Origin: Vicinamibacterales bacterium
Lineage (GTDB): Bacteria > Acidobacteriota > Vicinamibacteria > Vicinamibacterales > JAMQPK01
Length of the DNA stretch: 64,000 bases
Assembly (NCBI GenBank): GCA_963762055.1
Contig: CAVXJF010000003.1
Span: 115,141-179,140 of the forward strand
Reading direction: 5' to 3'
Positions 26,142 through 44,110 of this stretch are shown in pieces. The notes under the pieces were generated by a model that was given only the letters and a program-made list of their open reading frames with translations, was not told where the DNA came from and searched no databases. The position numbers were made by a program, and so were the translations under genes. Every line of letters starts with the position of its first letter. Position 1 is the first letter of the stretch.

Positions 26142-27083
26142 ATGGATCTCCGTCAGCTCGAAATCGTCCAGGCCGTCGCCGAAACCGGCTCGTTCACGGG
26201 CGCCGGCAGGAAACTCCACGTCTCGCAGTCGGCGATCAGCCGTCAAATCCTGCTCCTCGAGGATGAGCTGAACGAAAGCATCTTCCTGCGCGTCGGCCGG
26301 CGCGTCCGCATCACCCCCGCGGGCGAATCACTCGTGCAGCTCAGCAACCGCGTCTTCGGCGACATCAAGGAAACAGTCACCGTCATCGGCGAGAGCCAGC
26401 AGACGCTGAGCGGCACGATTCGCCTGGCCGGCGGCATGACGGTGTGCATGTACGTGTTTCCGCAGCTGCTCCAGGAGTATCGCCGTCAGAACTCACTCGT
26501 CGAGGTGAAGCTGATCACGGGAACGTCGCAGCGCCTCTTGCAGGAAATACGCGGCGGCACCGCGGACCTGGGCTTCATTACGCTACCGGTGAACGAATCG
26601 GAACTGGTGACCGTTCCGGCGATGGAAGAAGAGATGCTGATCGTCGCGCATCCGTCGCATCCGCTCGCCAGGAAGAAACGCATCGTGCCACAAGACCTGT
26701 CGCAGCAGCCCTTCGTGCTGTTCGAGGCGGCGTCCAACTCGCGCCGGGTCGTCGATACGTTTTTTGCCAAGGAACGCATCGAGCCGCGGATCGTCATGGA
26801 AACCGAAAACGTCGAGATTCTGAAGGCGCTGGTGCGGTCGGAGATGGGCATCACCATCATTCCGTACCAGGCCGTTGCCCGCGAAGTTCGGAGCCGGCAA
26901 CTGTTTTGTGCGCGTATTTCTGGCGCCCATCTCGTCCGCTACACGGGCTGGGTCTATCAGCGGGCCAACAAGGTTCCTCGCATGCTCGAAGAGATGTTCC
27001 ACGCTTACGACCGCATCCTGCCGAAGCTCCATTTGAGTCCTGGAGGGCGCATGCCGGCGAACAACAATGACGCGCCCCGCTGA
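26142..27083 (+). CDS. LysR family transcriptional regulator
   Basis: MDLRQL...SFTGAGRKLHVSQSAISRQI HTH. Confidence 0.95.
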   Translation: MDLRQLEIVQAVAETGSFTGAGRKLHVSQSAISRQILLLEDELNESIFLRVGRRVRITPAGESLVQLSNRVFGDIKETVTVIGESQQTLSGTIRLAGGMTVCMYVFPQLLQEYRRQNSLVEVKLITGTSQRLLQEIRGGTADLGFITLPVNESELVTVPAMEEEMLIVAHPSHPLARKKRIVPQDLSQQPFVLFEAASNSRRVVDTFFAKERIEPRIVMETENVEILKALVRSEMGITIIPYQAVAREVRSRQLFCARISGAHLVRYTGWVYQRANKVPRMLEEMFHAYDRILPKLHLSPGGRMPANNNDAPR

Positions 27084-27849
27084 AATCGGCGTCACGGCCG
27101 AGTCTCTCGACCGGGTTGGTCAAATCGCGCGCGCGGCGGGCGCGGCGATTCTGGCGCACTATGAACGCCCCGGGGTGGTGTCCTTCAAAGACGATCGAAG
27201 TCCTTTGACAGAAGCCGATCGGAGTGCTCATTGCGTCATCGTTGACGGATTGCTGGAATGGGACCGCAGCATCCCGGTGATTTCGGAAGAAGGGGACATT
27301 CCGCCCTATGAAGAACGCTCGCGATGGGATCGGTTCTGGCTTGTCGATCCGCTCGACGGCACGAAGGAGTTTCTCCATCGCAATGGCGAGTTCACCGTGA
27401 ACATAGCCCTGGTGGCCGGCGATGCTCCCGTGCTCGGCGTCGTCTATGCACCGGCGCTGGATCTTCTCTACTCGGCTGGCCGCGGCCTGGGCGCGTGGAA
27501 GGAGCAACCAGGAACCAGTGCGGTTCGCGTGTATTCCGAGCCGCTCTCAGCGGGGTCGCCACTCGTCGTAGCCGAAAGCCGCTCGCACCCGTCGGAGGAG
27601 CTCGAGGCGTATTTGAAAACCATTGCCATCGACCGTCGAATTCAGGTCGGCAGCTCGCTCAAGTTCTGCTGGGTCGCCGAGGGGAAAGCGGACATCTATC
27701 CCCGTTTCGGGACGACGATGGAATGGGATACGGCGGCGGGCGATTGCGTGTATCGTCAGTCGGGCAGAGTGGGGGAGCGGTTCTCCACGCTGCGCTATAA
27801 CACGCCGTCTCTCCGGAACGACCATTTCGTCGTGGGCATTCAGGGCTAA
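27067..27849 (+). CDS. cysQ: 3'(2'),5'-bisphosphate nucleotidase CysQ
   Basis: SPLTEAD, ISEE, WLVDPLDGTKEF, GSSLKFC, EWDTAAG. Confidence 0.93.
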   Translation: MTRPAEIGVTAESLDRVGQIARAAGAAILAHYERPGVVSFKDDRSPLTEADRSAHCVIVDGLLEWDRSIPVISEEGDIPPYEERSRWDRFWLVDPLDGTKEFLHRNGEFTVNIALVAGDAPVLGVVYAPALDLLYSAGRGLGAWKEQPGTSAVRVYSEPLSAGSPLVVAESRSHPSEELEAYLKTIAIDRRIQVGSSLKFCWVAEGKADIYPRFGTTMEWDTAAGDCVYRQSGRVGERFSTLRYNTPSLRNDHFVVGIQG

Positions 27850-27860
27850 TACGTCCGCCG

Positions 27861-28595
27861 ATGAACCAGGAGACACCAACGCGACCTGTCGCGCAGGCGT
27901 TGTCGTGGAGAGTGCTCGGCACCGTGGTCACCACCGTGCTGGTATTCATCTTCACGCGCAGCCTGTCGCTGTCGCTCGCGATAGGAGTGCTGGAGTTTGT
28001 GGCGAAGGCCGCGCTGTACTGGTTCCACGAGCGGGCGTGGGACCGGGTGCGGCGTGGACGGCAACACGTCGAGCCGGTGGTCCTCTGGTTTACGGGGCTG
28101 TCCGGCGCTGGCAAGAGCACGATTGCGGATTGGTCTGCTCGCGAGTTGAGCGCTCGCGGCTTCAAGGTGGAGCGGTTGGACGGCGACACGATTCGGGACA
28201 TTTTCCCGAACACCGGGTTTTCGAGGGCCGACCGCGACGCGCACATCAAGAGAGTTGGCTACCTGGCCAGTAAGCTCGAGAAGAACGGCGTGTTCGTCGT
28301 GGCGTCGTTTGTGTCGCCCTACCGGGAATCCCGCGACTTCGTCCGCACGCTTTGCAAGAACTTCGTCGAGGTGCATGTGGCGACACCCCTGACCGTTTGC
28401 GAGCAGCGCGATGTGAAGGGGCTCTACGCGAAAGCGCGCCGTGGCGAGATTCAGAATTTCACCGGCATCGACGATCCGTTCGAACCGCCACTCCAGCCGG
28501 ACGTCGTCATCGATACGACAAAGCTCACCGTAGACAAGGCGGGCGAAATGGTCCTCGGCTTTGTCCACGGGCGGAGTGGACAGGCGAGACGCTGA
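27861..28595 (+). CDS. cysC: Adenylyl-sulfate kinase with N-terminal 2-TM (DUF2061-like) domain
   Basis: WR..GT...YWFHERAW membrane domain; WFTGLSGAGKST, LDGD, RDVKGLY, FTGIDDP. Confidence 0.92.
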   Translation: MNQETPTRPVAQALSWRVLGTVVTTVLVFIFTRSLSLSLAIGVLEFVAKAALYWFHERAWDRVRRGRQHVEPVVLWFTGLSGAGKSTIADWSARELSARGFKVERLDGDTIRDIFPNTGFSRADRDAHIKRVGYLASKLEKNGVFVVASFVSPYRESRDFVRTLCKNFVEVHVATPLTVCEQRDVKGLYAKARRGEIQNFTGIDDPFEPPLQPDVVIDTTKLTVDKAGEMVLGFVHGRSGQARR

Positions 28596-28596
28596 C

Positions 28597-29214
28597 TCAC
28601 CCTGCCCGACGGTTCCGATACAACTGGTTATCTACGGTCGCAGCCATGGCTGCGATGTCGAGGTTGGCGCCGAGAAACGTACAGATACGCCGCGCCATCG
28701 CTTCGGGATCCGCGAGAACGTCCGCGTATGTCACGTCGATCGCCGAAAATCGATGATCGTGGGCCAGGAGATATTTCACTTTGCGAAGGTGCCCTTCGAA
28801 GAATTTCTGAAGCGCATCATCGCCTGCCGAGCCGCCCGCCTCGCCGCGTTGAGAGAGCATCTTGCTTTGTGATTTGAGAACTTCCTGGATGTCGCGGTTC
28901 ATGAAGACGACCTGATAGTTGTTCTCTGCCGGCAGGTGCTCGAGGAGTGACGAGATGACCTTGACCACCCGGCCGCGGCCCGCGCGAACCCAGCTCCTGT
29001 CCATTCCCTTGTCCAGCTGTTTGACCCGCTCGAGCTCGTAATACCCCTTGGGGTTCTGATCGTCGGGAGTTCGGATGCCATCCATCCAGACCGGAACTCC
29101 ACCTGCCTCCAGCATCTTCATCATCATCGAGGTTCCGGAGCGGGGCAGCCCCGAAACGACGATCACCGGCCGCCCGTAGATGACGCGACGGTAGGTCCGC
29201 TGCCACCATGCCAT
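28597..29214 (-). CDS. PAPS-dependent sulfotransferase family protein
   Basis: 5'-PSB loop VSGLPRSGTSMM; NPKGYYE; FMNRD..EVLKSQ 3'-PB motif. Confidence 0.85.
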   Translation of the reverse strand: MAWWQRTYRRVIYGRPVIVVSGLPRSGTSMMMKMLEAGGVPVWMDGIRTPDDQNPKGYYELERVKQLDKGMDRSWVRAGRGRVVKVISSLLEHLPAENNYQVVFMNRDIQEVLKSQSKMLSQRGEAGGSAGDDALQKFFEGHLRKVKYLLAHDHRFSAIDVTYADVLADPEAMARRICTFLGANLDIAAMAATVDNQLYRNRRAG

Positions 29215-29288
29215 GAATCGCCTCCAATGTCCGGTGACCGTTCCGGTGCTGCTTGGTATACCATACGGCGCGCACCTACAGCACCCAT

Positions 29289-31406
29289 ATGAAGCCGCAA
29301 GGCCTACGTCGTCTGGCGTTGGTCGGAGTCTGCATTGTCCTGGCGGCTGTACCCGCTGAGGCCTATGTCGGTCCTGGGGCAGGCTTCGCCCTGCTCTCGT
29401 CGTTTCTCGTCGTTTTCACCACCATCATTCTGGCGTTTGTCTCGCTCCTGATTTGGCCATTCCGCCTGGCGATTCGCGCGATCAGGCGCGGGCGCCCGGT
29501 AAAGCCTCTCATCTCGCGGTTCATCGTCGTGGGGCTCGATGGCCAGGACCCGAAACTGACCGACCGCTTCATCGCCGAGGGCAAGCTCCCGAACTTTTCG
29601 AAGCTTGCCGCGATGGGCAGTTACAACCGTCTGCGGACAACGTTTCCCTCGGTATCCCCTGTAGCGTGGTCGTCGTTCTCCACCGGCGTATCGCCCGCGA
29701 AACACAATATTTTCGACTTCCTGGACCGCGATCTGCGCAGCTACCTGCCGGTCCTTTCGTCCACACACATCGGCCGTCCGGCGCGTGTGCTGAAGCTCGG
29801 GCGATACCGCATTCCGTTGTCGAGGCCCGACCTCCGGCTGTTGCGGAAGTCGAAACCGTTCTGGTGCATCCTGGGCGATCACCATATCTGGAGCACAGTG
29901 CTCCGCGTGCCGATTACATTTCCCCCTGACAAATTCTACGGCGCCGAGTTGAGCGCGATGTGCGTGCCGGATTTACTGGGCACGCAAGGCACGTTCACGC
30001 TCTTCACGACACGTTCCGCAGAGGGCCGCTTTAAAGAAGGCGGCGCGCGCGTGCAGCTCCGGAAGAATGGCCGCGGATTCGAAGCCGACCTCGAAGGTCC
30101 GCCCAACAGTCTCGTCGCCGGCGAGCCGACATTGACGATCCCGGTATCGATTTGCGCCGACGAAAATCGCGCGCGGATCAACGTGAATGGCTCTCAACAC
30201 ACGCTGGAAGTCGGCAAGCTGAGCGAATGGATCACGCTGGCCTTCCCGGCCGCGCCGTTGATCAAGGTGAGCGGTATCTGCCGGATGCTCGTCACGGAGA
30301 TGGGAGAACACGTCTCGCTGTACGTCACACCCATCAACATCGATCCCGAGAGTCCGGCGATGCCGATCTCTCATCCGCCGTATTACGCGACCTACCTGGC
30401 GAAAAAAGTGGGCCAGTACTCCACACTCGGTCTGGCGGAGGATACGTGGGCGCTGAACGAAGGGGTGATCGACGACGGCACGTTCCTGCAGCAGACCTAC
30501 GACATCGATGCGGAGCGCGAACGGATGTTCTTCGCCGGCCTCGACAAGCTCCGCCGGGGAGCCCTTGTCTGTGTCTTCGACGCGACCGATCGCATCCAGC
30601 ACATGTTCTGGCGTTATATCGACCCTTCACATCCGGCCGGGCGCGGGCGCGAGACGGCGAAACATCGAGACGCCATCGAGGAGCTCTACAAGCGCAATGA
30701 CGCGTTAGTGGGCAGGGTGCTGGCGCGGCTGAACGAAAACGATGTCCTGATGGTGCTCTCCGACCACGGGTTCAATTCGTTCCGCCGCGGCGTCAATCTC
30801 AACAGCTGGCTGCACGCGAACGGCTACCTGACGCTCAAACCGGGCGCGGACGGCGGCGCGGAGTGGCTGCGGGATGTCGATTGGTCTCAGACGCGCGCGT
30901 ATGCCCTGGGCCTTACCGGCATGTTCCTCAATGTGAAAGGACGCGAAGCGCAGGGGATTGTCGAGCCGGGAGAGAGCGTTGCGCAGCTCCGCAAAGAGCT
31001 CGCCGCAAAACTCTCAGGTCTGCAGGACCAGGAGTCCGGAACGATCGGCATCACTGAGGCATTTGAGACGCGCACGTTGTACTCCGGTCCATATCTGGAG
31101 AACGCGCCAGATCTCCTGATCGGCTACAACACCGGCTACCGGACGTCGTGGGACTGCGCCACCGGCGTCGTATCGGGACCGGTGTTCGAAGACAACCTGA
31201 AGGCCTGGAGCGGCGACCACTGCATCGACCCGCGTCAGGTCCCCGGCGTGCTCTTTTGCAATCGTCCCATCGATTCGACCGATCCCGCGCTCATCGATAT
31301 CGCGCCGACAGCGCTGCATCTCTTCGGCGTCCAGCCTCCGGCGTACATGGAAGGTAAGGTCTTGATGGCCACCGGTTCGCGTCGACACGAGGCTGCGACA
31401 GCGTGA
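29289..31406 (+). CDS. AlkP-superfamily NPP/phosphodiesterase-like protein with signal peptide, YVGPGAG motif and TM anchor
   Basis: GLDG, PSVSPVAWSSF, DRIQH, LSDHG, SGDH metal/nucleophile motifs. Confidence 0.85.
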   Translation: MKPQGLRRLALVGVCIVLAAVPAEAYVGPGAGFALLSSFLVVFTTIILAFVSLLIWPFRLAIRAIRRGRPVKPLISRFIVVGLDGQDPKLTDRFIAEGKLPNFSKLAAMGSYNRLRTTFPSVSPVAWSSFSTGVSPAKHNIFDFLDRDLRSYLPVLSSTHIGRPARVLKLGRYRIPLSRPDLRLLRKSKPFWCILGDHHIWSTVLRVPITFPPDKFYGAELSAMCVPDLLGTQGTFTLFTTRSAEGRFKEGGARVQLRKNGRGFEADLEGPPNSLVAGEPTLTIPVSICADENRARINVNGSQHTLEVGKLSEWITLAFPAAPLIKVSGICRMLVTEMGEHVSLYVTPINIDPESPAMPISHPPYYATYLAKKVGQYSTLGLAEDTWALNEGVIDDGTFLQQTYDIDAERERMFFAGLDKLRRGALVCVFDATDRIQHMFWRYIDPSHPAGRGRETAKHRDAIEELYKRNDALVGRVLARLNENDVLMVLSDHGFNSFRRGVNLNSWLHANGYLTLKPGADGGAEWLRDVDWSQTRAYALGLTGMFLNVKGREAQGIVEPGESVAQLRKELAAKLSGLQDQESGTIGITEAFETRTLYSGPYLENAPDLLIGYNTGYRTSWDCATGVVSGPVFEDNLKAWSGDHCIDPRQVPGVLFCNRPIDSTDPALIDIAPTALHLFGVQPPAYMEGKVLMATGSRRHEAATA

Positions 31407-33362
31407 AGAGGACGCATCTCGTACATAGGCATATTCGTGGCCCTTCTTGCCGCTGCTACTTCGTGCAGCGGGCGATCCACTGCCGCAGGCAAGCGGGTCA
31501 TCGTCCTCGGGTTCGACGGCTTGGACTACGACCTTACGCGATCGCTCATCGACAAGGGCCGGCTCCCGAACTTCGCACGCCTTGCCGCGTCCGGCGGTTT
31601 CGCCCCATTGGAAACCTCGATCCCACCGCAGAGCCCCGTGGCATGGTCCACGTTCATCACCGGCCTGGATCCAGGCGGCCACGGCATTTTCGATTTCATC
31701 CACCGCGATCCGAAAACGATGGTGCCGTACCTGTCGACATCGCGGGCGGAGGGTTCCAGCCGCGCGATTACGGTGGGCGAGTGGCAGTTCCCGATCTCCG
31801 GCGGGAGCGTCGAACTCCTGCGACAGGGACAGCCGTTCTGGGAAGTGCTGGAGGCTCGCGGCATCGAAACGACGATCATCCGCATGCCGGCAAATTTTCC
31901 CCCTTCTGGCACTGCCACACGCGAGTTGAGCGGCATGGGAACGCCGGACCTTCTCGGGACTTACGGCACGTTTTCGTTCTACACATCCGAGCCGTTTGCG
32001 TTCGGAGGACGGGCGTTATCCGGCGGAACGCTGTATCCCGTCACGGTCGAAAGCAACGTCGTGCGCGCCGCGCTGCACGGGCCCGACAATCCATTTCGCA
32101 GAGTGCCCGAAAAAGTCAGCGCCGATTTCACGCTGTTCATCGATGCCGAGCGGCCTGTCGCAAAGCTTGTCGTGGGTGACGAGGAGCGCGTGCTTGCCGT
32201 GGGGGAATGGAGCGACTGGCTGCCCGTGGATTTCGATCTGCGTGTGCCGTTGCAGAGCGTCCGCGGGATGGCCCGGTTCTACCTCAAGCAGGTGAAGCCC
32301 TACGTCGAGATGTACGTCTCGCCGATCAATTTCGATCCGATGTCACCGGCGATGCCGGTTTCGGAGCCGCCAGAGTACGCCGCTGAACTTGCAGAGGCCA
32401 CCGGCCGCTTTTATACGCAGGGCATGCCGGAAGACACGAAAGGATTGAGACAAGGCGTCCTGACGCGCGACGAGTTCCTTGCGCAGGCCCGGCTGGCAGG
32501 CGAAGAAAACCGCATCCAATACCGCTACGTGCTCGATCGGTTTTCGGACGGGCTGCTCTTCTACTATTTCGGCAACGTCGACCAAATCGCCCACATGATG
32601 TGGCGTGCCCGCGATCCTGGCCATCCGGCGCACGACCCTTCGGTTGATCCGAAATATGCGGACGTCATCGACGAGCTTTACGTCGGTCTCGACCGCATCG
32701 TCGGCGACACGCTCGACGCGATCGGCGCCGACGGAACGCTCATCGTGCTTTCCGACCACGGCTTCACCTCGTGGCGGCGCTCGTTCCACCTCAACACCTG
32801 GCTGAAGCAGCAAGGGTTCCTGGCACTTGCGAACCCGTCGCGCGAAGACGATCCGGGCTTCTTTGGCAACGTCGACTGGGCACGTACGCGCGCCTACGGC
32901 ATCGGACTCAATGGTCTCTACATCAACGTGAAGGGGCGGGAGATGTCGGGCTCCGTCGCGCCTGGCGATCGAGAGCGTGTCATGGACGAGATCGCCGGCA
33001 AGCTGCTGAAAACTGTCGATCCGGCGACCGGCCAGCCAGCCATCACGAAGGTCTATCGCCGGGAGCAGGTCTACACCGACGCCGGGTTCTTCGATCGTGC
33101 GCCAGATCTCGTCGTCGGCTACGCGAAGGGCACGCGCGGCTCGGATGAGTCCGCGCTCGGAAGCATTCCACCGGAAGTCATCGTGGACAACAAGGATCCC
33201 TGGAGCGGCGACCATTGCATGGATCACGAGACGGTGCCCGGCGTGCTGCTGTCGAATCGGCCGCTGCGCAAGCCCGCACCGTCGCTCGGCAGGGTCGCGG
33301 CGGCGGTCCTGGCAGAGTTCGGCATCGAGGAGTTCCCTGTGAAGTCGAAGAACGGCAAATGA
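31403..33362 (+). CDS. AlkP-superfamily NPP/phosphodiesterase-like lipoprotein (paralogue of upstream gene); 1-nt frameshift in signal region
   Basis: YIGIFVALLAAATSC lipoprotein-type signal; GFDG, PPQSPVAWST, DQIAH, LSDHG, SGDH. Confidence 0.82.
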
Positions 33363-33385
33363 CTGATTGATGAATGGAGGGCGAC

Positions 33386-33580
33386 ATGTTCGGATCGGGA
33401 AGCGTCAAGCTCGACAAAGCGCTCGTCGGAAGGGTCAAGCGTTATGCGGACATGGCCGGGTATTCCTCTGTCGAAGAGTTCATCACGCATGCGCTCGAGA
33501 AGGAGATCAAGCATCTCGACGAAGCCGGTTCGGAGGAGGAAATCAAAAAGCGCTTGAAGGGTCTCGGCTACATCTCGTGA
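33386..33580 (+). CDS. 64-aa protein: ribbon-helix-helix-like N-terminus plus C-terminal EEEIKKRLKGLGYIS motif
   Basis: GGAGG RBS; SVKLDKALVGRVKRYADMAGYSSVEEFITHALE pattern. Confidence 0.75.
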   Translation: MFGSGSVKLDKALVGRVKRYADMAGYSSVEEFITHALEKEIKHLDEAGSEEEIKKRLKGLGYIS

Positions 33581-33587
33581 TCGGCAG

Positions 33588-34421
33588 ATGACGTGGGTGA
33601 ATAACGGGCTCGGCGGACTGGTCGGTGCCGTGCTGTCGCCATTCCGGTCGCTTCCGCCGATTGTCGGTCTGAGCGTTGTATCGCTCCTCGCCGCGATCGG
33701 CATGCTGCTGGTATTTCGCGCGACGTCGAATCAGCCGGCGATCGCGGACGTCAAGCGGCGCATCCACGCAGGCATCTTCGAAATCCGGCTGTTCAACGAT
33801 GACCTCAGGGCGATGTTCGCCGCGCAGCTGGACATCCTGCGTCACAACTTCACATACGTGCGGCTGTCGCTGGCGCCGATGTTGTGGATGTTCGTTCCGC
33901 TTCTGCTGCTCATCGCGCAGTTGCAGTTCTACTACGGTTACGACGGCTTCGGCCCTGGACAGTCCGCTGTCGTCAAGGTTCGCTTGAAACAGGGCGCCAG
34001 CCCTCCGTCCGGCGCCGCCCCGGCGCTTGCCCTCGAAGCGCCATCGGGTTTGCGGGTGCAGACGCCGCTCGTATGGATTCCATCCGAGCGGGAAGCTGCG
34101 TGGCGGATTGGCACCGAGAAGCCCGGCGATTATCACTTGACCGTCCGGCTCGACGGGACGTCAGCAACGAAGCTGGTACGAGTGTCGGAACAAGTCGGCT
34201 GGCGGACGCCCGAGCGTCTCGAGGCGGGGTTCCTCAACGAGGTGCTTTATCCAGCGGAGGCGCCGATTGAGGCGAACGTCCCGATCGAATCCATCGAGTT
34301 GGCGTATCCGGAACGTGAAATCAGCCTGTTCGGATATCCCGTTCACTGGATGATCGCGTTCTTCGCGTTGTCGCTCGTGTTCGCGTTCGCGTTGAAATCG
34401 AGGTTCGGCGTGGTGATCTAA
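33588..34421 (+). CDS. 3-TM membrane protein resembling DUF106/EMC3/TMCO1 (Oxa1 superfamily)
   Basis: Amphipathic N-helix, TM1, helical hairpin, SLAPM...P TM2, beta-rich loop, W..FF..S TM3 at the C-terminus. Confidence 0.65.
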   Translation: MTWVNNGLGGLVGAVLSPFRSLPPIVGLSVVSLLAAIGMLLVFRATSNQPAIADVKRRIHAGIFEIRLFNDDLRAMFAAQLDILRHNFTYVRLSLAPMLWMFVPLLLLIAQLQFYYGYDGFGPGQSAVVKVRLKQGASPPSGAAPALALEAPSGLRVQTPLVWIPSEREAAWRIGTEKPGDYHLTVRLDGTSATKLVRVSEQVGWRTPERLEAGFLNEVLYPAEAPIEANVPIESIELAYPEREISLFGYPVHWMIAFFALSLVFAFALKSRFGVVI

Positions 34422-34442
34422 TCGTGTGACAAGGAGATTGCG

Positions 34443-36901
34443 ATGACAGCGACCTTGCGGCTTGCGGTTGTCTCGTCGGTCGTGCTCATGACACTCGCGT
34501 GTTCCGGCGCCACTCCCACAGAAGCACCTCCGCTTGCCGTTCGCCTCGTCGACTTGTTCGACGCCAAGCGCGTTCAAGGGTCGGTCAAACCGGCGACAAC
34601 TGCACGGCCGACGATCTGGCGGTTCGACGGGACGCCCTTGCCGCCAACTGCCAAGTTCGCCGCGACGCGGCGGCTGGGAGCCGGGGCCCGGGGTCGCCGG
34701 TCTCATCGTCAAGGACGGTCAGCTGACCGGACGCGTGACGACAGACGGTGCCCTCATTCACCTCGAGCGGACCTCCGGTCTCGATGTTCCGGACACGCTT
34801 CACGCCATCGAGGTCAAGATGCGCGCGTCCCACGGCGCCAACATTTCGATTCAGACGTCACCCGCGGAGACCGTCAACCTGGCAGATCTCTCTGCGGGGG
34901 CGCGAACGACTGCCGTGGCAGATGGAGTCGCCCATTATTGCGGGCGATGCGTTCCAGACGTACGAGCTGATCCCGAGAGCCCCCATCGTGACCTCCCGGA
35001 TCCGGCACCTCGTCATCCGGCCGACCGATGCCTCCGAAGGGACCTTTGACATTGAATCGGTGCGTCTTGTCACTCGCACCGAACACCTGGCGTCGATCCC
35101 GGCGGGCGTAGGGTGGCAGGGTCTGCAGCAGATTTACCGCGAGTCGCTCGTCGCCCATGCTCCGGAATCGATGCAGTTCGACGTGCAGCTGCCCGATCGT
35201 CCGTGGCTCGATCTCGCGGTGGGGACGGTCGAAGACGGGGCCGTGACATTTACGCGTGGTCGCCAAACCTGAAGGAGCTGCGGACGATCGCGATGTGGTG
35301 CAAGCCGACTTTACCGTCACGCGGCCTCATCGATGGGACATCTATCCGGTCGATCTGTCGCGTCTGGCCGGCAGGCGAGTCACCCTGTCGCTTCAGTTGA
35401 AGTCGGAATCGGCGGGTGCGCTCGGGTTTTGGGGTTCCCCGGTGGTGCGAACGCTGGGTGCGTTCCCGACGTGGCTGACGTCCGCTCCGCCCGCAGGGGG
35501 TGATCTTCATTCAAGCCGATACACTGCGCCGCGACCACCTGAACTTCTACGGACACGCGCGCGAGACCGCGCCGTTTCTGACGCGCCTGGCCAAGGAGGG
35601 CGTGCAATTCAACAACTCGATCTCACAGGCCAGCTGGACGAAGGTGTCGACAAGCTCGATGATGACGAGCCTGTATCCGTCGACGCATGGTGTCCGACAT
35701 GCAGACGGATCGCTTGCCTGCGTCGGTGACGACGATGGCCGAAGCGTACAAAGCCGCCGGGTACGCGACGCTGTCGATGTCGTCGGTGGCATTCACCGGT
35801 CAGAACACCAACCTGCATCAGGGCTACGAGGAGCTTCACGAAAACGGCTCTCTCACCACGGCGGGGACGCCGCTCTCGAGCAAGAGCGCGCGCGAATACG
35901 TTGACCGGCTGGTGCCCTGGTTGGACCGGCACCGCGAGGTACCGTTCTTCGTGTATCTCCAGGTCTTCGATCCGCATTCACCGTTCGAGCCATATGGACC
36001 CTACAACACAAAATTTGGAGACCCCGCGCGAACGGAACAGCACCGCAAGGAAAAAGCCGCGGTGACGAAGTTGATTGAGGATCCGGTCATGCGAGGCCGC
36101 GGCCTGCCCACGCGCAACGAGGTGATCAAAGCCGGATTCGATCCGGACATCTACGTCAGAGCAGGAGGCGGATTGGTACGACGGCTCCATTCGCGGCATG
36201 GACGTGGAAATGGCTCGGCTCTTCGAGCAACTGCGCCGTCTGGGCCTCGACGAGAGAACGCTGGTGGTGCTGACAAGCGACCACGGCACCGAGTTGCTCG
36301 ATCACGGCCGCTTCTTCCATGGCCATACGCTCTACGGTGAGCTGACGAATGTCCCCCTCATCATGCGGTGGCCCGGGCGTCTGCCGGCGGCTCGGGTGAT
36401 CCAGGACCTCGTCCAGGGCATCGACATCATGCCGACCATGTTGGAACTGAGTGGAATTGCGCCACCCGCTGGCCTGCAGGGACAGTCGTTACGGCCTTTT
36501 CTGACCACCAGCTCTGCAAGCGAATCTGAGGTCCGGAGGTCCTGGCCGGGATGGAGTCCGCGCCCGGCCATTTCGGAACAAGTCCCTGACACTCCGGCTC
36601 AGCGCGAGGAGCTGAGTCGCGAGTCGGTCGCGATCGTCGACGCGAACTGGAAGCTGATCCACAACACCGTCGCGACCGACCGGTGCTGCCCGAATTCGAG
36701 CTGTTCGACTACTTCAAAGATCCGCTGAACAAGCAGAACGTGGCGGCCGACCACCCGGACGTCGTCGCGCGGTTGTCGAAGCTGATCGCCGGATGGCGCC
36801 AGATGGCCACCGCCGCCCGGCTCAAGCCTGACGCCGAGACGACAAAAACAATGAGTGCCGAAGAGTTACAGCGGTTGAGGAGCCTCGGTTACGTTCGCTG
36901 A
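34443..36901 (+). CDS. Sulfatase-fold lipoprotein 1 (about 7 frameshifts)
   Basis: MTLAC lipobox; ADTLRRDH, QASWTKVS, DPHSPF, TSDHG, HGHTLY, RLRSLGYVR spread across frames. Confidence 0.75.
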
Positions 36902-36910
36902 AGGAGCGTC

Positions 36911-39374
36911 ATGATCACACATCGTTTACGCCTCGTGTTTGTGTGTGTCCTCGCGCTGTCGTGCGGCCGGACAGGCGAATCACCATCGACACCGCTGGCG
37001 ATTCGTCTGACCGATCTCTTCAATGAGAAGAAGCGTTGATCGACGCTGTGAAGCCGACAGCGCCGCCGGCGCGAACCGAATGGCGCTTCGACGGCACGGC
37101 ACCTGTGCCGGCCCCTGCTGCCTTCTCCGCGACCCGCGGGTGGGAAGCCGGCCCCGGTGTCACCGGCCTGGCCATCACCAACGGGATGTTGACTGGCCGG
37201 ACGACGAGCCCCACCGCGCTCATTCGCATCGAGAGGACCTCGGACGTTCGAGGTGGCTGACCAACTGCACTCGATCGAAGTCACGGATCCGCGTGTCCGC
37301 CGGCGCGAATCTGTCGATTGAAACCTCACCATCCGTTCGACCAGAGTTCGCGGCGATCAACGGGCAGATGATGGGGCTCGGCAATGAGATCACCACTCCG
37401 ATCACACCGGGCGACCAGGTCCAGACCTACGTGCTGACGAAGGCGCGCCCGCTCCCAGCCTCTCAGATTCGGCACGTATTCATTCGACCTAGCGATGTCG
37501 CGGGTGCGACTTTTGCGATCGAGTCCGTGCGCTTGATCTTCCGGCGGGAGCACCTGGCGAGCATTCAGTCTGGTGTTGGCTGGCAGGGGATGCGCGAGGT
37601 GTATCGAGAGTCGATCGCGTCACGCGCGCCCGAACGGTTGCAGTTTGCGTTCAAAGTGCCGCCGGCGGCGTGGCTCGATCTCGCCCTGGGCACGGTCGAC
37701 GAGGGTCCGGTCACGTTCACGGTCAGTGCGCGTGGCAGCGGTGACGCTGGCCCTGGGAACGATGGTCAGGTCCTGCTCGAGCAGACGGTGACGACGCCGT
37801 ACCGCTGGGAGTCCCGGGTAGTCGATTTGGCGCGACTCAGCGGACAAAACGTCACGCTGACGCTCGGCGTACGTGGGCGCGAGTCCGGGGCCATCGGTCT
37901 CTGGGGCGCGCCGATCGTTCGACGTCGCGGGGCATTGCCCGAGCCGGCCGCTGGTGGTGCCGTCCCGGCACTCGGACGGGTGCCGCAAGGTGTCATCGTC
38001 GTCTGGGCTGACACGTTGCGTAAGGATCACCTCGACGCGTACGGTTACAAACGGGCGACCGCGCCGTCGATGCGACAGTTTGCGAGTGACGGGGTCCTCT
38101 TCAACAACTCCACCACACAGGCCACATGGACCAAGGTGGCGACGCCGTCCATGCTGACCTCGCTCTATCCTTCGACCCACGGCGTCATCGACTTCAACGA
38201 TCGTCTCCCCGCCGCCGCGACGACTCTGGCCGAGGTGTACCGCGCGGCTGGATACGCCACGATCGGGTTCGCGTCGAATCTCTTCACCGGCCAATTCACA
38301 AACCTGCATCAGGGCTACGAGGAGCAGCACGAAGATGGCTCGCTCCCGAATCAGGGCTCCAGCAAGACGGCACGCGAGTACGTGGATCGGCTCGCGAGCT
38401 GGCTCGAGAGCGCACCGCGATGTCCCGTTTTTCGCGTTCCTCCACGTCTACGACCCCCACGATCCGTTCGAGCCGGGCCGGCCGTACGACACCATGTGGG
38501 CCGACCCTGCCAAGCGTCAAGCGCATCATCAGAACCTGGAGACGGTCCGGAAAGTCATTAGCGATCCGTTGCTGAAGCTGTTTGGGATGCCGACGCGAGC
38601 CGAGCTTGTCAAGGCCGGGCTCGACGCGGATGCGTACGTCAACCACGACGTCGACTGGTACGACGGGTCGATACGCGGCCTCGACACCGAGTTGGGGCGC
38701 CTCTTCGAGCGGCTCAAAGGGCTGGGCCTCGACGATCGCACGCTGGTCGTGTTCACGGCGGATCACGGTGAGGAGTTCCTTGACCACGGCCGGACCTTCC
38801 ATGGACAGAGCGTCTACGGCGAGCTCACCCAGATCCCGCTGATGATGCGTTGGCCCGGCGTACTTCCCGCCGGCCGCGTCGTAGACGAAGTGGTTCAGAC
38901 GATTGACGTGATGCCGACGCTGCTCGCGATCAGTGGTCTGGCCGCGCCGCCGGAAATTCAGGGGCAGAGCCTGGTGCCTTTGGTTCGGCCGAGCGAGGGT
39001 TCGGCGAGGCGCGTCGTGGCGGCCGCGTCCAGCTATCTCAGAAAAGGCGGTCACGAACCCTGCCAAAGGTGCGGCGCCTGCGCCGCACGACACCGAAGCA
39101 TTTGCCATTATCGATGGCGGCTGGAAGCTGATCCACCATACAACACGTCCGAACGGGGGGCCTGAGTTCGAGTTATTCGACGTTGCCAAGGATCCGCTGA
39201 ACCTCAACGATATCGCGGCCCGACAGCCCGAGGTCGTTCAGCGCCTGGCGAAGCTCGTTGCCGGCTGGCGGCAGATGGCGCGTCGCCGCCCGGCTCAAGC
39301 CCGATGCAGAGACGACCAAGGGCCTGACGCAGGAACAGCTGCAACGCCTCAGGAGTCTCGGCTACGTGCGTTGA
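36911..39374 (+). CDS. Sulfatase-fold lipoprotein 2, tandem paralogue (several frameshifts)
   Basis: LALSC lipobox; ADTLRKDH, QATWTKVA, DPHDPF, TADHG, HGQSVY, RLRSLGYVR. Confidence 0.75.
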
Positions 39375-39399
39375 ACGTGGGTGCGAAGGTGAGGGCGAC

Positions 39400-40854
39400 A
39401 TGCTGGATCCAATCCGGGGCATGGGCTCTGTGCGAATCGCGATTCTCGCGGTTGTCGCGGTGGTTGTGTGCCTCCTCTTCGCATCAAAGGGCTTTCCGCC
39501 TGATCTCATACCGGCAAGGCTCGATTCGCTCGCGCCGGGCGTCGGTCGACGCGATCTGAACCTGCTTGTCATCACGCTCGACACGACGCGTGCCGATGCG
39601 ATTGGTACGTACGGCGGTCGCGCGGTCACGCCTACGTTGGATCAACTTGCGAGCACCGGAGTTGCGTTCGAGCACACCTCAACGGTCGCGCCGCTGACTC
39701 TCCCGGCACACTGCAGTCTCTTCACGGCGCTGTTTCCGCCCGGCCATCAGGTTCGCGGGAACGGACAGGTCGCGTTGGCTTCAAAGTTCGTCACGCTTGC
39801 TGAACATTTGAACGCCAGCGGATTTCGAACGGGTGCCTTCGTCAGCAGCTTCGTGCTCGATGACATGTGGGGACTCAATCAAGGGTTCGATGTCTATCGC
39901 GACCCAGATTTTCAACCAGGTCGGATCGATCGCGAGTCGCTTCGCAGCCCCGCCGGCCGCATCGTCGACGCTGCGCTTGGTTGGCTGCACGAAGTCGACA
40001 GCCGCCCGTTTTTTGCCTGGTTGCATTTCTACGATGCGCACGCGCCTGCTCGACCGCCTTCGGAATTTGCCTCGCCGAACGGCCAGGATGCCTACCTTGG
40101 CGCAATCGGTTTCATCGACTTCCAGCTCTCACGAGTGATCAACTTTCTCGACGAGCGCGGCCAGCTCGACAACACAGTCGTCGTGGTTGTGGGAGATCAC
40201 GGTGAGAGCCTCGGCGAACACGGCGAAGCCACACACGGCCTGTTTGTCTATGAATCGGTCATGCGCGTCCCCCTGATCATTCGTGCGCCGTTTGCGAACA
40301 TGCAGGGCCGCCGCGTGGGCGACACGGTCCGTATCGTTGACGTCATGCCGACGGTGCTCGATTTGCTGGGACAGACCTCAGCTCCGGCCACAGATGGTCA
40401 GACGCTGGTGCCGCTGATGAGCGGGGCCGTGAGAGAGCTAGGACTGGAGGCGTATTCCGAGTCGCGATACGGTTTCGATCGCTTCGGATGGAGTCCGCTC
40501 GCGGCGCTCCGCCAGGGCCGGTTCAAGCTGATTCTGGCTCCGCGGCCGGAATTGTACGACCTCGCATCCGACCCGCGGGAAATGTCGAATCTCTATGGCG
40601 AGCGAGCGGTACTGGCGGCGAAACTCACGCGACGACTGCAGGAGATCGAGCAACTCGCCGGCGTGCAGCGAGCAGCAGACGTGCCCGCCATAGACTCCGA
40701 CACACGCGCCCGGCTCGCGGCGCTCGGATACGCCAATGCATCCTCTTCAGGTTCACCGGTTGATCCGGCAGCGCGTCTTGCCGACCCGAAAGACCGTATC
40801 GAGCTGTATCAGCAATTCACCGAGCAGTCGCCACGGCAGGAGGGACTCCCATGA
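39400..40854 (+). CDS. Sulfatase-fold membrane-anchored protein 3
   Basis: N-terminal TM; TLDTTRAD, APLTLPAH, YDAH.P, GDHGE, RLAALGY. Confidence 0.82.
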   Translation: MLDPIRGMGSVRIAILAVVAVVVCLLFASKGFPPDLIPARLDSLAPGVGRRDLNLLVITLDTTRADAIGTYGGRAVTPTLDQLASTGVAFEHTSTVAPLTLPAHCSLFTALFPPGHQVRGNGQVALASKFVTLAEHLNASGFRTGAFVSSFVLDDMWGLNQGFDVYRDPDFQPGRIDRESLRSPAGRIVDAALGWLHEVDSRPFFAWLHFYDAHAPARPPSEFASPNGQDAYLGAIGFIDFQLSRVINFLDERGQLDNTVVVVVGDHGESLGEHGEATHGLFVYESVMRVPLIIRAPFANMQGRRVGDTVRIVDVMPTVLDLLGQTSAPATDGQTLVPLMSGAVRELGLEAYSESRYGFDRFGWSPLAALRQGRFKLILAPRPELYDLASDPREMSNLYGERAVLAAKLTRRLQEIEQLAGVQRAADVPAIDSDTRARLAALGYANASSSGSPVDPAARLADPKDRIELYQQFTEQSPRQEGLP

Positions 40855-41910
40855 ACAGCGCCCACCTCGTTTTAATCGCTGTCCTTACTGTCGTGGCGTG
40901 CGAGGAGGATAGAAAACCGCCGGTTCCAACGACTCCGACGCCCAACACGACCATCCTCTTCCCAGGGCCAAGCCTATCGAGACTGAACATTCAAGGACCG
41001 GCGCCCACAGTAGGCCCACGTCAAACGGCTGCGGTGAAGGCCGTCGCTCTCTTCTCGGACGGATCCGAACGCGATGTGACGGCCGATGCAAGATGGACAT
41101 CCACGCAGCCGGAGATCGCGACGGTGGATGGCGGCGTGATCACGGGACAGGCGCTCGGACGGACGCTGATTCGGGCAACCTACATGTCCCGCAGTGCCTC
41201 TCTGTCCATGGTGATCAAACCGGAGGGCACATTCATTTTACAGGGGACGATTACCGAGCCGGGACCGGTCAGCGTTGGAACGGCGACAGTCGCAGTGCTG
41301 AGTGGCCCGTCGCAGCAGCAAGTGACGGCGGACAGCTTTGGGTTCTATGAACTCATTGGCGTGACCGGAATGTTGACGCTTCGAGTGAGCAAGCCGGGTT
41401 ATCGCGATGAAACCACGACGCTGACCGTGACGCGAGATCAGGATCTGGATGTGCAGATTAGGCCGATCGCCGCGCCCGCTAGTGTGGCAGGAGTGTATGG
41501 CGTCACGCTCACCGTTTCCCCTTCGTGTTCGTTGGTGCCGAACGATCAGAGGACACGAACCTACACCGCCACAGTCGGACAGGCCACTGCCAGGCTGAAT
41601 ATCCAGCTTGGCGACGCTAATTTCGTCGTTGATGATAGTGGGAGGAAGAACAGTTTCGAATGGAACGGTGTTCGGCAGCACCGTCACGTTCAATTGGGGT
41701 AGCGGCGACTACTATTACTACTACTACGGCACCAGCCAAGTTCAGGAGACGCTGCCGGACGGTCAGATTCTCGGAATCTGGGGCAAAATGGTTGTCACCG
41801 CGGCGCAAACCATGTCGGGCGATCTCGTCGGCGGATTCAGTTTCCGGGAAGGCAACAGAACCAGAAGATGCTCGGCTGCAGACAGTAGAGTGGTGTTCAC
41901 ACGGAGGTAA
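40851..41910 (+). CDS. Lipoprotein with Ig-like (Big_2) and carboxypeptidase-regulatory-like domains; frameshift near 41660
   Basis: VVAC lipobox; FSDGSERDVT..A.W.S..P.IATV; ADSFGFY...VSKPGY. Confidence 0.7.
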
Positions 41911-42010
41911 TGACTGCGATTCCGGAAAGCCGACGTTGAGTCCTGAGGCCGTGGTTCGCGTCTAAAAGGGTGAAATCCCTCAGCCTCCAGGGAGGAGGCG
42001 GGGATTGGGT

Positions 42011-42757
42011 ATGATCAGCAATACTGTGACCCAAGACGACGTGACGACCCTTGCCCTGCGCGCGGGCCCGATGCCCGCTGAAGATGTGCTTCGCCTCGCC
42101 ATTGAACGGTTCGCTCCGTCGGTGGCGCTCTCGTCGAGCTTCGGCGCCGAAGACATGGTGCTCGTCGACATGATCGCGAAGATCGATCCGAAAACGCGCA
42201 TGTTCACCCTCGACACGGGGCGGTTGCCGCAGGAAACCTACAACGTCATCGACGCCACGCGCAGTCGATACGGCATCGCCATCGACGTGTATTTTCCGCA
42301 GGCCGACGCGGTGCAGAGCATGGTCGCCGAACACGGAGTGAACCTGTTCTATCACTCGGTGGACAACCGGAAGTTATGCTGCGGCGTCAGAAAAATGGAG
42401 CCGCTTCGCCGCGCCTTGTCCGGTCTCGACGCCTGGATCACCGGCCTGCGCCGCGAACAGTCCGTTACCCGCGTAGACGTTCCCAAAGTGGAATGGGATA
42501 TCGCCAACGGGCTCGTCAAGTTCAACCCGCTTGCGGAATGGAGCCACGCCGACGTGTGGAACTACATCCGCGACCACAACGTTCCGTATAACGCCCTTCA
42601 CGATCGCGGCTATCCGAGTATCGGCTGCGGCCCGTGCACCCGCGCCGTTCAGCCCGGCGAACCCGAACGCGCCGGCCGATGGTGGTGGGAGCATCCGGAC
42701 ACGAAAGAGTGTGGACTGCACGTGCAAAGTCCAGAGGCGAAAGTCGACAGTCTCTAG
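42011..42757 (+). CDS. cysH: Adenylyl-sulfate reductase CysH, [4Fe-4S]-type
   Basis: SSFGAED, LDTG, CCGVRK, TGLRREQS, SIGCGPCT, ECGLH. Confidence 0.92.
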   Translation: MISNTVTQDDVTTLALRAGPMPAEDVLRLAIERFAPSVALSSSFGAEDMVLVDMIAKIDPKTRMFTLDTGRLPQETYNVIDATRSRYGIAIDVYFPQADAVQSMVAEHGVNLFYHSVDNRKLCCGVRKMEPLRRALSGLDAWITGLRREQSVTRVDVPKVEWDIANGLVKFNPLAEWSHADVWNYIRDHNVPYNALHDRGYPSIGCGPCTRAVQPGEPERAGRWWWEHPDTKECGLHVQSPEAKVDSL

Positions 42758-42769
42758 TCGACAGTCGTC

Positions 42770-44110
42770 ATGCCCTTATTTCCGATCTTCGTGAAGCTCG
42801 AGGGACGTCAGGTCCTCCTCGTTGGTGCCGGCCCTGTTGCCGAGTCCAAACTGAGCGGGCTGATGACGGCGGGCGCGCGTGTGACGCTGGTGGCGCCGAC
42901 GGCAACCTCGGCAATCGCGGCGCTTGCAGAGCAGGGCGCCGTCTCGTGGCACAAGCGCGTGTTTCGCCCGGACGATCTCGACGGCGTCGCGCTCGTCGTC
43001 GCCGCCGTGCCGAAAGATATCGCCGCGTCGGTGTATGCGCACGCACAGCGCCGCGGCGTCCTCGTGAATTCGGTGGACGATCCGGATAACTGCGACTTCT
43101 ACTACCCGGCCGTGGTGAACCGCGGCGATTTCCAGATCGCGATCTCCACAGCGGGTCACAGCCCGGCACTGGCGCAGCGGATTCGCATCGAGCTCGAACG
43201 TCAGTTCGGCCCCGAATACGAGCGATGGATTCAGCAACTCGGAGACGCGCGGCGCGAGCTCTTCGCCAGCGAGCCGGACGCCGAGGAGCGCAAGCGGAAG
43301 CTCCACGAGCTTGCCGCCGAAGGGGCTCATCCAGCGTCGTTGCCCAGCGGGCGTGGCGGGATGGTGTATCTGGTCGGCGCGGGTCCGGGCGACCCCGAAC
43401 TGCTGACCTTGAAGGCGCTGCGCATCCTGGGGCAGGCCGATGTGGTGCTGCACGACGATCTGCTCACCGACGACATCCTCGAGTTGATTCCCTCCCATGC
43501 GCGTGTGGAATCGGTGGGAAAGCGTCACGGTGAACGGACCATCACGCAGGACGACATCAACCGGCGTCTGGTGAGATACGGGGCAGCGGGCAAGACGGTC
43601 GTGCGGCTCAAGGGAGGGGACGGCGCGATCTTCGGCCGGGCCAGCGAAGAGATCGGCGCGCTTCACGCGGCTGGTGTGGCGTTCACGATCGTCCCCGGCG
43701 TGACTGCCGCCAGCGGGGCAGCCGCAGCCGCGGGGGTATCGCTGACTGACCGCCGCGCGGGTTCTGCTCTCGTCTTTCTGACGGCGCAACGGTGCAAGGG
43801 CAATCCGCCGCCGAACTGGAAGGCGATAGCCGAGCTAGGAGGCACGGCGGCGATTTACATGCCGGGCGGCCACGAGGCGGATCTCGCGCGTCAATTGATG
43901 GATGCCGGTCTTCGGCCTGACACCACGTGCATCGTCATTGCGAGCGCGTCGCGCCCTGACGAACGTGTGGTGGAGACTACGCTGGGGCGGTTATCTGAGC
44001 TGCCCGGGCTCCCTCCGCCCGCTCTGCTGCTCATCGGGGTACTTCCCTTCCGGCAGGCACCCGCTGGCACTCCACCGGGAAATGCGGGCAAACACGCCTC
44101 GGATCATTAA
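42770..44110 (+). CDS. cysG: Siroheme synthase CysG
   Basis: VGAGPVA, N.VDDP..CDF, ISTAG.SPALA; VGAGPGDPELLT, RLKGGD. Confidence 0.92.
   Translation: MPLFPIFVKLEGRQVLLVGAGPVAESKLSGLMTAGARVTLVAPTATSAIAALAEQGAVSWHKRVFRPDDLDGVALVVAAVPKDIAASVYAHAQRRGVLVNSVDDPDNCDFYYPAVVNRGDFQIAISTAGHSPALAQRIRIELERQFGPEYERWIQQLGDARRELFASEPDAEERKRKLHELAAEGAHPASLPSGRGGMVYLVGAGPGDPELLTLKALRILGQADVVLHDDLLTDDILELIPSHARVESVGKRHGERTITQDDINRRLVRYGAAGKTVVRLKGGDGAIFGRASEEIGALHAAGVAFTIVPGVTAASGAAAAAGVSLTDRRAGSALVFLTAQRCKGNPPPNWKAIAELGGTAAIYMPGGHEADLARQLMDAGLRPDTTCIVIASASRPDERVVETTLGRLSELPGLPPPALLLIGVLPFRQAPAGTPPGNAGKHASDH

Follow-up and report, generated by a model that had tools for sequence, protein, structure and literature searches.

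The characterized relatives of the protein described here, each of which belongs to the Oxa1 superfamily, help hydrophobic segments with short polar flanks into a membrane through a groove that is open to the cytoplasm and the bilayer (PMC5868721; bioRxiv 10.1101/2020.12.20.422553). Within this superfamily, DUF106 (COG1422, PF01956) is described as the archaeal YidC with eukaryotic descendants (PMC5868721; PMC8887752; PMC5898192), and Bacteria are credited with the five-transmembrane (TM) YidC only (PMC5868721; PMC8887752; PMC5898192; bioRxiv 10.1101/2020.12.20.422553). We found no literature on bacterial DUF106-type proteins, in a survey whose incomplete coverage leaves their absence unproven. 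Here, we analyze a 64,000-nucleotide stretch of DNA from a Vicinamibacterales bacterium (Acidobacteriota), hereafter the window, which encodes at positions 33588-34421 of its forward strand a DUF106/Ylp1-like Oxa1-superfamily membrane protein of 277 residues, called DUF106L. The gene is an intact open reading frame (ORF) with an ATG start.

DUF106L very probably belongs, as a distant bacterial member, to the branch of the Oxa1 superfamily that is represented by DUF106/Ylp1 ("archaeal YidC"). A profile of 52 family sequences, searched against 177,635 distinct PDB sequences, returned one significant match, Mj0480 (5C8J), at E = 9.1e-11. The alignment pairs profile positions 9-121 with chain residues 10-126, that is, the N-terminal helix, TM1, the hairpin and TM2, and a second stretch pairs TM3 (246-272 with 171-197) too weakly to be significant alone. 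Family residues K44, Q49, P97 and P104 fall on the K, the Q, the P of R-P-M and a P of Mj0480. The "APM" motif that the first-pass annotation had recognized before TM2 is therefore shared with Mj0480, its P97 (present in 51 of 52 sequences) being the residue aligned with RPM. The sole other row at E <= 10 was an unrelated oxidoreductase (E = 2.1), and none of the YidC chains among these PDB sequences was matched at that threshold.

The link to the curated family is made by a relative, P0235, whose full length aligns with the window protein at 35% identity. As a single sequence it matched Mj0480 at E = 1.2e-4, and it scored 33.4 bits against PF01956, over the 27.1-bit gathering cut-off; its matches to PsaF were taken as chance. 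PF01956 was matched at E <= 1 by 6 of the 52 family members (best E = 4.8e-8), and 23 of 120 homologues among the matches listed carry the JGI label "uncharacterized membrane protein (DUF106 family)". A Planctomycetota-dominated cluster of the ESM Atlas in which 17% of the members have PF01956 (score 0.85) is a lead only. Through the profile match to Mj0480 and the passing score of P0235, the archaeal and endoplasmic reticulum (ER)-type resemblance first noticed by eye can be regarded as true homology. A convergent three-helix membrane protein that matched Mj0480 through hydrophobic composition is an extremely improbable explanation: the alignment takes in the hairpin, which lies outside the membrane, and pairs K44, Q49, P97 and P104; no other PDB sequence was significant in a set that includes many membrane proteins; and P0235 repeats the match independently besides passing the Pfam cut-off.

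Some results weigh against this assignment. The window protein itself matched nothing relevant in Pfam and NCBIfam, with PF01956 unmatched at E <= 1, and the scores of the structural matches are modest. When the whole genome was searched with PF01956 in six frames, the DUF106L locus was unmatched even at E <= 10, and the two matches obtained, both below threshold, lie elsewhere. The missing match reflects a limit of the curated model and is not a structural criterion. At the profile level, the DUF106 affinity proposed in the first-pass annotation thus holds for the family profile and for P0235 and fails for the window protein, which stays below PF01956. At the structural level, a confident three-helix model was obtained, but Foldseek searches of the PDB with the whole model gave immunoglobulin (Ig)-like matches to an inserted domain only and none for the helical core. 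Neither the family profile nor P0235 gave a sequence-level match to TMCO1, EMC3 or GET1 among PDB sequences. Nor is DUF106L a YidC/Oxa1/Alb3 protein proper, as it has three TMs in place of the five-TM core with its PF02096 signature; PF02096 is absent from the 25 listed of the 29 Pfam families matched by the 52 members.

All the peptide strings on which the original reading was built are present in the translation of 33588-34421: LSPFRSLPP (residues 16-24), SNQPAIADVKRRI (47-59), QLDILRHN (80-87), SLAPMLWMFVP (94-104) and WMIAFFALSLVFAFALKSRFGV (254-275). In a Kyte-Doolittle scan (19-residue window, threshold > 1.4), three segments and no more are hydrophobic, located approximately at residues 19-48, 88-117 and 245-277. 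From an alignment of 52 sequences, AlphaFold2 gave a model with a mean predicted local distance difference test (pLDDT) of 96.1 and a predicted template modeling score (pTM) of 0.87. Its helices span residues 2-19, 24-46 (TM1), 49-68, 73-116 (the second hairpin helix continuing into TM2) and 254-269 (TM3), and 12 strands lie between residues 126 and 252. Hydropathy and the three long membrane helices of the model agree with the three-TM layout claimed at the outset, and the helical hairpin placed after TM1 is found as helices 49-68 and 73 onwards. The "beta-rich loop" of that account was right as to beta content and wrong as to the word loop, for it is a folded Ig-like domain of about 130 residues that is absent from the archaeal structure.

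Conservation was counted over the 52 aligned sequences, which are 32-65% identical to the window protein, and the parts of the protein, all encoded on the forward strand, are given here from N- to C-terminus. The amphipathic N-terminal helix (residues 2-19; 33591-33644) is seen in the model and in the Mj0480 alignment from residue 10, is predicted to lie on the periplasmic side, and keeps P18 in 47 of 52 sequences. TM1 (residues 24-46; 33657-33725) ends in a polar cluster, K/R44-x-T-S-N/D-Q49, in which K/R44 (50/52), S47 (46/52), N/D48 (49/52) and Q49 (49/52) are all kept. The hairpin (residues 49-90; 33732-33857), predicted to be cytoplasmic, bears at its tip the most conserved stretch of the protein, F-E-I-R-L-F-N-D-D, with E65 in 50, R67 in 46, L68 in 51, F/Y69 in 50 and D71 in 47 of the 52 sequences. 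TM2 (residues 91-116; 33858-33935) is marked by conserved Y90 (49/52), P97, P104 and Q/H111, together with S/T94 and, less strictly, R/K92 (34/52). TM3 (residues 253-272; 34344-34403) carries W254 (51/52), S/T262 (48/52) and R/K270 (47/52). Conserved polar or charged residues are thus found at the predicted cytoplasmic ends of all three TMs.

Between TM2 and TM3 lies the inserted Ig-like beta-sandwich (residues 120-252; 33945-34343), defined by the 12 strands of the model and by Foldseek, whose matches, all of them Ig-like, were to SbsC domains of S-layers, to cyclomaltodextrinase and to Fabs (best E = 1.3e-3; probability reaching 1.00). G180 is invariant in this domain, and W172, R173, K195, P222, E224 and Y240 are at least 90% conserved. 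Its predicted periplasmic location follows from the likely topology, with the N-terminus outside and the hairpin and C-terminus inside, for which we relied on the positive-inside rule applied to the sequence; the basic residues concerned are K56, R57, R58, R67, R74, R85 and R92 in the hairpin region and K270 and R272 at the C-terminus.

The gene is genuine and far beyond a chance ORF, because it has many full-length homologues with conserved ends and because contigs from short reads of other soil runs span 33589-34066 and 34261-34428 with zero indels. Homologues at E <= 1e-3 number 1064 proteins in 90%-identity clusters; as representatives of 50%-identity clusters there are 2184 at E <= 1e-3, 1406 at E <= 1e-10 and 379 at E <= 1e-30. 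They match over the full length, and no fused form was found at E <= 1e-3 among longer proteins (486-2000 residues), which is weak evidence.

DUF106L is present, mostly in single copy, in 88 of 301 sampled genomes of the Acidobacteriota (tallies that include one unpublished genome, G049), in 76 of the 275 that are at least 90% complete, and in 61 of 186 genera. Relatives' loci were collected by scanning one genome per species with the hairpin-tip stretch as search pattern, and the best 80 of 218 relatives were retained. By their record titles, these belong within the Acidobacteriota to Vicinamibacterales, Thermoanaerobaculia, Holophagales, "Marinacidobacterales" and "Multivorans", and outside it to six Gemmatimonadota metagenome-assembled genomes (MAGs) and three MAGs labeled Gammaproteobacteria; the ESM Atlas adds clusters from Aminicenantota. 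The nearest named relatives of the window protein, at 91-92% identity, are in the Vicinamibacterales MAGs L032 and L034. In the host genome (5.17 Mb in 17 contigs; completeness 93%), DUF106L is single-copy and a canonical YidC is also present, detected as a single PF02096 match (E = 3.5e-57; C17:832606-833163) in a 571-residue ORF. Since this genome has a canonical YidC, DUF106L is an extra protein and not the housekeeping insertase.

DUF106L is also, with high probability, a fixed and obligate part of a conserved envelope module with two enzymes of the alkaline phosphatase (AP) superfamily, PDE1 and PDE2, and a small putative ribbon-helix-helix (RHH) protein; sulfotransferase and genes for the synthesis of 3'-phosphoadenosine 5'-phosphosulfate (PAPS) are the usual further members. 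Gene order was compared over 96 loci, namely the best 80 relatives and the 16 most divergent loci of the phylum (22-40% identity), with PDE1 and PDE2 told apart by their best tblastn score. Where 2.5 kb of flank or more is available, PDE2 lies directly upstream of DUF106L in 84 of 87 loci; where 4.6 kb or more is available, PDE1 followed by PDE2 does so in 72 of 79. Among the seven exceptions, L034 and L102 have no long PDE match, the order is disturbed in L060 and L092, PDE1 is downstream in L120, and it is elsewhere in L121 and L122. Even the 16 most divergent loci all have PDE2 directly upstream, and 14 have PDE1 adjacent (13 upstream, and L120). Five genomes without PDE1 directly upstream were checked for the PDE1 anchor described below, and it was found in all five, in frames of 702-746 codons, unlinked in four and just downstream in G048. 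The RHH gene between PDE2 and DUF106L gave a tblastn match in 90 of the 96 loci. Synteny and co-occurrence with the module genes strongly favor the suggestion of the first-pass annotation that DUF106L is dedicated to a pathway.

The same data make it very unlikely that DUF106L is a general auxiliary insertase of broad specificity, like YidC2 of Firmicutes, whose operon position has no functional meaning. Such a role would agree with the characterized relatives, which all act on many clients (PMC5868721; bioRxiv 10.1101/2020.12.20.422553), and with archaeal DUF106, which is a general insertase (PMC5898192). However, the same gene order persists at identities as low as 22-40% and in different phyla, the presence of DUF106L is patchy (88 of 301 genomes) and matches that of its RHH partner, and DUF106L does not share the position of archaeal yidC near secY and ribosomal protein genes (PMC5898192).

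PDE1 (29289-31406, forward strand) and PDE2 (31437-33362, forward strand) are PF01663 paralogues (E = 9.1e-30 and 5.9e-39), and their closest solved relatives are bacterial nucleotide pyrophosphatase/phosphodiesterases (for PDE2, E = 3.6e-5 over the N-terminal part only). PDE1 is membrane-anchored. Its N-terminus opens with a hydrophobic, signal-like stretch that ends in A-x-A; next come an invariant Y-[IV]-G-P-G-A-G, a TM helix and then basic residues, and this anchor motif (29289-29500 in the window) is found in 73 of the 96 loci. The two helices of the anchor would form a hairpin, joined by a loop of some nine residues. By the positive-inside rule, the catalytic domain of PDE1 is predicted to be cytoplasmic, with the short loop alone translocated, and Y-[IV]-G-P-G-A-G would be either a new N-terminus after signal-peptide cleavage or a tight membrane hairpin. 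PDE2 is predicted to be periplasmic because its orthologues bear lipoprotein-type signal peptides or, in more distant lineages, twin-arginine ones. In the window its start is split (31403-31440), the signal-peptide part lying in another frame from about 31403 because of an extra base near 31425 relative to L034; the signal peptide of the orthologues is unbroken.

Our tentative preference, which we hold as possible and somewhat short of probable, is that DUF106L is a client-dedicated insertase or membrane partner of PDE1. By default, groove function would be taken as retained, because the polar TM ends, W254 and both TM2 prolines are conserved. The polar groove, facing cytoplasm and lipid, would be lined by K/R44, T46, S47, N48, Q49, Y90, R92 and S/T262, and, as in the relatives of DUF106L, would assist the membrane entry of a short polar segment together with the helices on either side of it. 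The PDE1 anchor would be the client here, and DUF106L may afterwards stay as the membrane partner of PDE1. The hairpin tip might serve as a specific docking site on the cytoplasmic side, for the PDE1 catalytic domain or for the tail of the RHH protein, and the Ig-like domain could contact or hold the translocated loop or dock the periplasmic PDE2. A dedicated cytoplasmic partner is argued for because the tip is a specific motif, unlike a basic patch that binds ribosomes. The classical YidC-only substrates are M13 procoat and Pf3 coat. By analogy, the PDE1 anchor is a plausible client because a hairpin with a very short loop resembles them.

There is also evidence that speaks against a PDE1-dedicated insertase. 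The housekeeping YidC could insert the PDE1 anchor alone. PDE1 is not adjacent in 2 of the 16 distant loci (L121 and L122), where PDE2 and the RHH gene always are. These tightest partners, the one predicted periplasmic and the other soluble and of a DNA-binding type, are no obvious insertase clients. Finally, the hairpin appears by eye to be only weakly basic, unlike ribosome-binding hairpins.

The RHH protein, of 64 residues and CopG-like, is encoded at 33386-33580 on the forward strand, with its stop 7 nucleotides before the DUF106L start and its own start (M-F-G at 33386) set by orthologues; the gap between the two genes is 0-30 nucleotides in most of the 77 loci listed. A profile search found it in 92 of the 301 genomes, including all 88 with DUF106L. 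Two of the four additional genomes are incomplete (G205, 83% complete, and G215, 75%) and the other two (G223 and G253) have only weak matches. No other gene of the module is as well conserved: identity to the window copy is 65-97% across the matching loci (78 of 80; mean column identity 79%), against 48-92% at the same loci. The putative RHH fold was read from the model (pLDDT 88.9; residues 1-10 extended, helices 11-24 and 29-45, and an extra C-terminal helix 50-59) and from Foldseek, whose named matches were CopA antitoxin, MazE, Arc, CopG, PutA, NikR and ParD, with probability up to 0.98 and TM-scores of 0.5-0.66, but E values of 0.27 or more. Pfam matches below cut-off were to RHH_1 in 13 and to PSK_trans_fac in 21 of 32 members. 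A match of the RHH profile to the C-terminus of yeast uL13 (E = 0.09) was taken as chance.

The C-terminus of the RHH protein, G-L-G-Y-I-S, is identical in 76 of 77 orthologues. At loci L032-L111, a tail of this kind is common to the RHH protein (33530-33580 in the window) and to sulfatase-family proteins of about 820 residues encoded downstream (36850-36901); it consists of acidic residues followed by L-[KR]-x-L-G-Y-[IV]-x and the stop. A six-frame regular-expression search of the genome with a loose form of the motif gave 13 matches. Of the 11 listed, which lie in open frames of more than 60 codons, only two fall near a stop (within one residue), and both are at the DUF106L locus. The common tail could act as a docking peptide or as a capping helix, or it could be a site of modification; a sorting signal or a site of tyrosine sulfation was also considered.

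These features raise another role for DUF106L, which we consider improbable: that of a regulatory partner that mainly binds and releases the RHH protein, the RHH tail resting on the hairpin tip, and thereby makes operon transcription responsive to a signal from the envelope, for which the Ig-like domain would be the sensor. Repressors and antitoxins with the RHH fold bind partners through C-terminal tails, and the RHH gene directly precedes DUF106L, co-occurs with it in 88 of 88 genomes and is the most conserved of the module, and what is conserved at the hairpin tip is a specific motif and not a basic patch. Against such a role, the conservation of the polar TM residues and of P97, P104 and W254, shared with Mj0480, points to retained groove function, and a regulator gene placed mid-operon would be unusual.

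The remaining members of the module concern sulfation. Upstream of PDE1, the window encodes CysQ, a 3'(2'),5'-bisphosphate nucleotidase that removes 3'-phosphoadenosine 5'-phosphate (27067-27849, forward strand; TIGR01331, 271.9 bits against a cut-off of 228.8), a fusion of adenosine 5'-phosphosulfate (APS) kinase to an N-terminal DUF2061 membrane domain, for PAPS supply (27861-28595, forward strand; PF01583, E = 5.4e-55; PF09834, E = 1.4e-17), and a divergently oriented sulfotransferase of 205 residues (28597-29214, reverse strand; PF13469, E = 3.6e-15). The fusion suggests that PAPS is made at the membrane. APS kinase occurs in 24 of the best 80 loci, and a fusion of sulfate adenylyltransferase and APS kinase (Sat-CysC) in 18 loci. 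CysH (PAPS/APS reductase) and CysG (siroheme synthase) lie at 42005-44110 and, with CysQ, flank the module, so that the window locus combines assimilatory sulfur genes with the sulfotransferase module.

Insertases can scramble lipids. The Oxa1-type groove of DUF106L may have been co-opted as a conduit or scramblase that moves a sulfated or phospho-ester lipid or metabolite across the inner membrane, a role that we judge unlikely, though not negligible. In the same unlikely scheme, the cargo would be made in the cytoplasm by the sulfotransferase and PDE1 and processed in the periplasm by PDE2 and sulfatase-family lipoproteins. Its appeal is that the enzymes are predicted to be distributed over both sides of the membrane, with the PDE1 catalytic domain, the sulfotransferase, APS kinase and CysQ on the cytoplasmic side and PDE2 and the sulfatase-family proteins (in 26-28 of the best 80 loci) on the periplasmic side, and that no other membrane transporter family is recurrent among the clustered neighbors. 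No member of the superfamily is, however, known to have such a primary role, no gene for lipid synthesis or glycosyl transfer is conserved among the clustered neighbors, and only 62 of the 96 loci gave a tblastn match to the sulfotransferase in the flanking sequence retrieved.

A still broader scheme, which must be considered quite unlikely, is that an archaeal/ER-type Oxa1 protein was recruited in Bacteria as the membrane core of a trans-envelope machine for sulfation or phospho-ester chemistry. Its cytoplasmic face would comprise PAPS synthesis, the sulfotransferase and the membrane-anchored AP-superfamily enzyme, and its periplasmic part the paralogous lipoprotein enzyme and the sulfatase-family lipoproteins. 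In place of an ordinary nascent membrane protein, the groove might then carry a lipid or metabolite that is sulfated, or else the RHH protein's G-L-G-Y-I-S tail with its tyrosine.

The sulfatase-family proteins of about 820 residues are represented in the window by two tandem paralogues downstream of DUF106L, both on the forward strand and both frame-split. Gene A (34443-36901) is intact in L034, where it encodes about 822 residues ending in the tail L-R-S-L-G-Y-V-R; gene B (approximately 36930-39400; its ends were transferred from L034 by alignment offset and not measured directly) encodes about 821 residues there. The splits are due to about 19 single-base insertions relative to L034, and contigs from three other short-read runs lack the extra base at 34907, 35472, 35476, 35480, 35490, 35696 and 36161. 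Conversely, L034 has extra bases within 27060-30165, where the frames of the window are intact. The frame splits of genes A and B fit either assembly indel errors or strain-specific decay.

A further sulfatase-family protein of 484 residues is encoded at 39400-40854. It bears the tail motif internally and, judged by eye, appears to have T-L-P-A-H at the position of the sulfatase motif. True sulfatases have a C/S-x-P-x-R motif there. T-L-P-A-H would appear to fit a phospho- or sulfo-transferase or hydrolase with a Thr nucleophile, and not a formylglycine sulfatase.

With regard to transcription, a scan of 27000-42500 gave one promoter-like and 10 terminator-like sites, no excess over shuffled sequence. 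Contigs of a soil metatranscriptome (X20) align to 33517-34570 at 90-95% likeness; they come from relatives, may reflect DNA carry-over, and were not used as evidence of expression. Neighbor clusters 5, 7 and 8 proved to be antisense ORFs of genes of high guanine-plus-cytosine content and were dropped.

Compared with the described systems, DUF106L is closest to Mj0480/Ylp1 (PF01956, COG1422; 5C8J), its sole significant sequence relative among solved structures. The two have in common the N-terminal helix, the three-TM core, the hairpin that separates TM1 from TM2, the proline motif with which TM2 begins, a tryptophan that opens TM3 and a C-terminal basic residue followed by G-[VI]. They differ in several respects. 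The host of DUF106L is bacterial and also has YidC; between TM2 and TM3, Mj0480 has a loop of about 45 residues (chain 126-171) where DUF106L has its Ig-like domain of about 130; and the hairpin tip of DUF106L, unlike that of Mj0480, is a conserved acidic and aromatic motif. In addition, DUF106L is encoded in an enzyme operon, whereas its archaeal counterpart is located close to secY and ribosomal genes (PMC5898192).

The minimal three-TM form is thus not confined to Archaea and the ER, but has a large bacterial clade that coexists with YidC. The debate about how YidC and SecY arose could gain from a phylogeny of the clade. It would be bold to propose that the clade represents three-TM insertases of ancient bacterial descent and not an archaeal transfer, but if true, this would bear on the insertase of the last common ancestor. 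The analysis also draws attention to a conserved envelope module of five to seven genes, linked to PAPS-dependent sulfation and widespread in the Acidobacteriota, a major soil phylum.

TMCO1, EMC3 and GET1 have the same layout of three TMs and a coiled coil as DUF106L (PMC5868721), and the best structural match of its helical core is one chain (chain 8) of the multipass-translocon entry 7TUT, a complex in which TMCO1 is one of the subunits. These ER proteins are heteromeric, with partners of the EMC6, GET2 or OPTI type (bioRxiv 10.1101/2020.12.20.422553). DUF106L may be a naturally occurring minimal insertase with only a few candidate clients, and hence a much simpler system in which to study the groove than EMC, GET or the multipass translocon. 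Bacterial YidC (PF02096) differs: it has five TMs and a bacteria-specific TM hairpin, where DUF106L has three TMs and lacks that hairpin, and in Gram-negative YidC the beta domain (P1) follows TM1, whereas in DUF106L it is placed between the last two core helices.

Cox18 of mitochondria and YidC2/SpoIIIJ of Firmicutes are precedents in which a second family member serves one or few clients beside a general insertase. Both are five-TM proteins of the YidC type, however, and are not known to be operon-linked to their clients in the manner of the DUF106L module. Because the JGI annotation had partly anticipated the family assignment, the novelty lies not in a new fold but in the variant architecture, the distribution and the genomic context. 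What is new is the combination of an archaeal-type three-TM Oxa1 protein in Bacteria, an Ig-like insert, coexistence with YidC and a sulfation-linked module.

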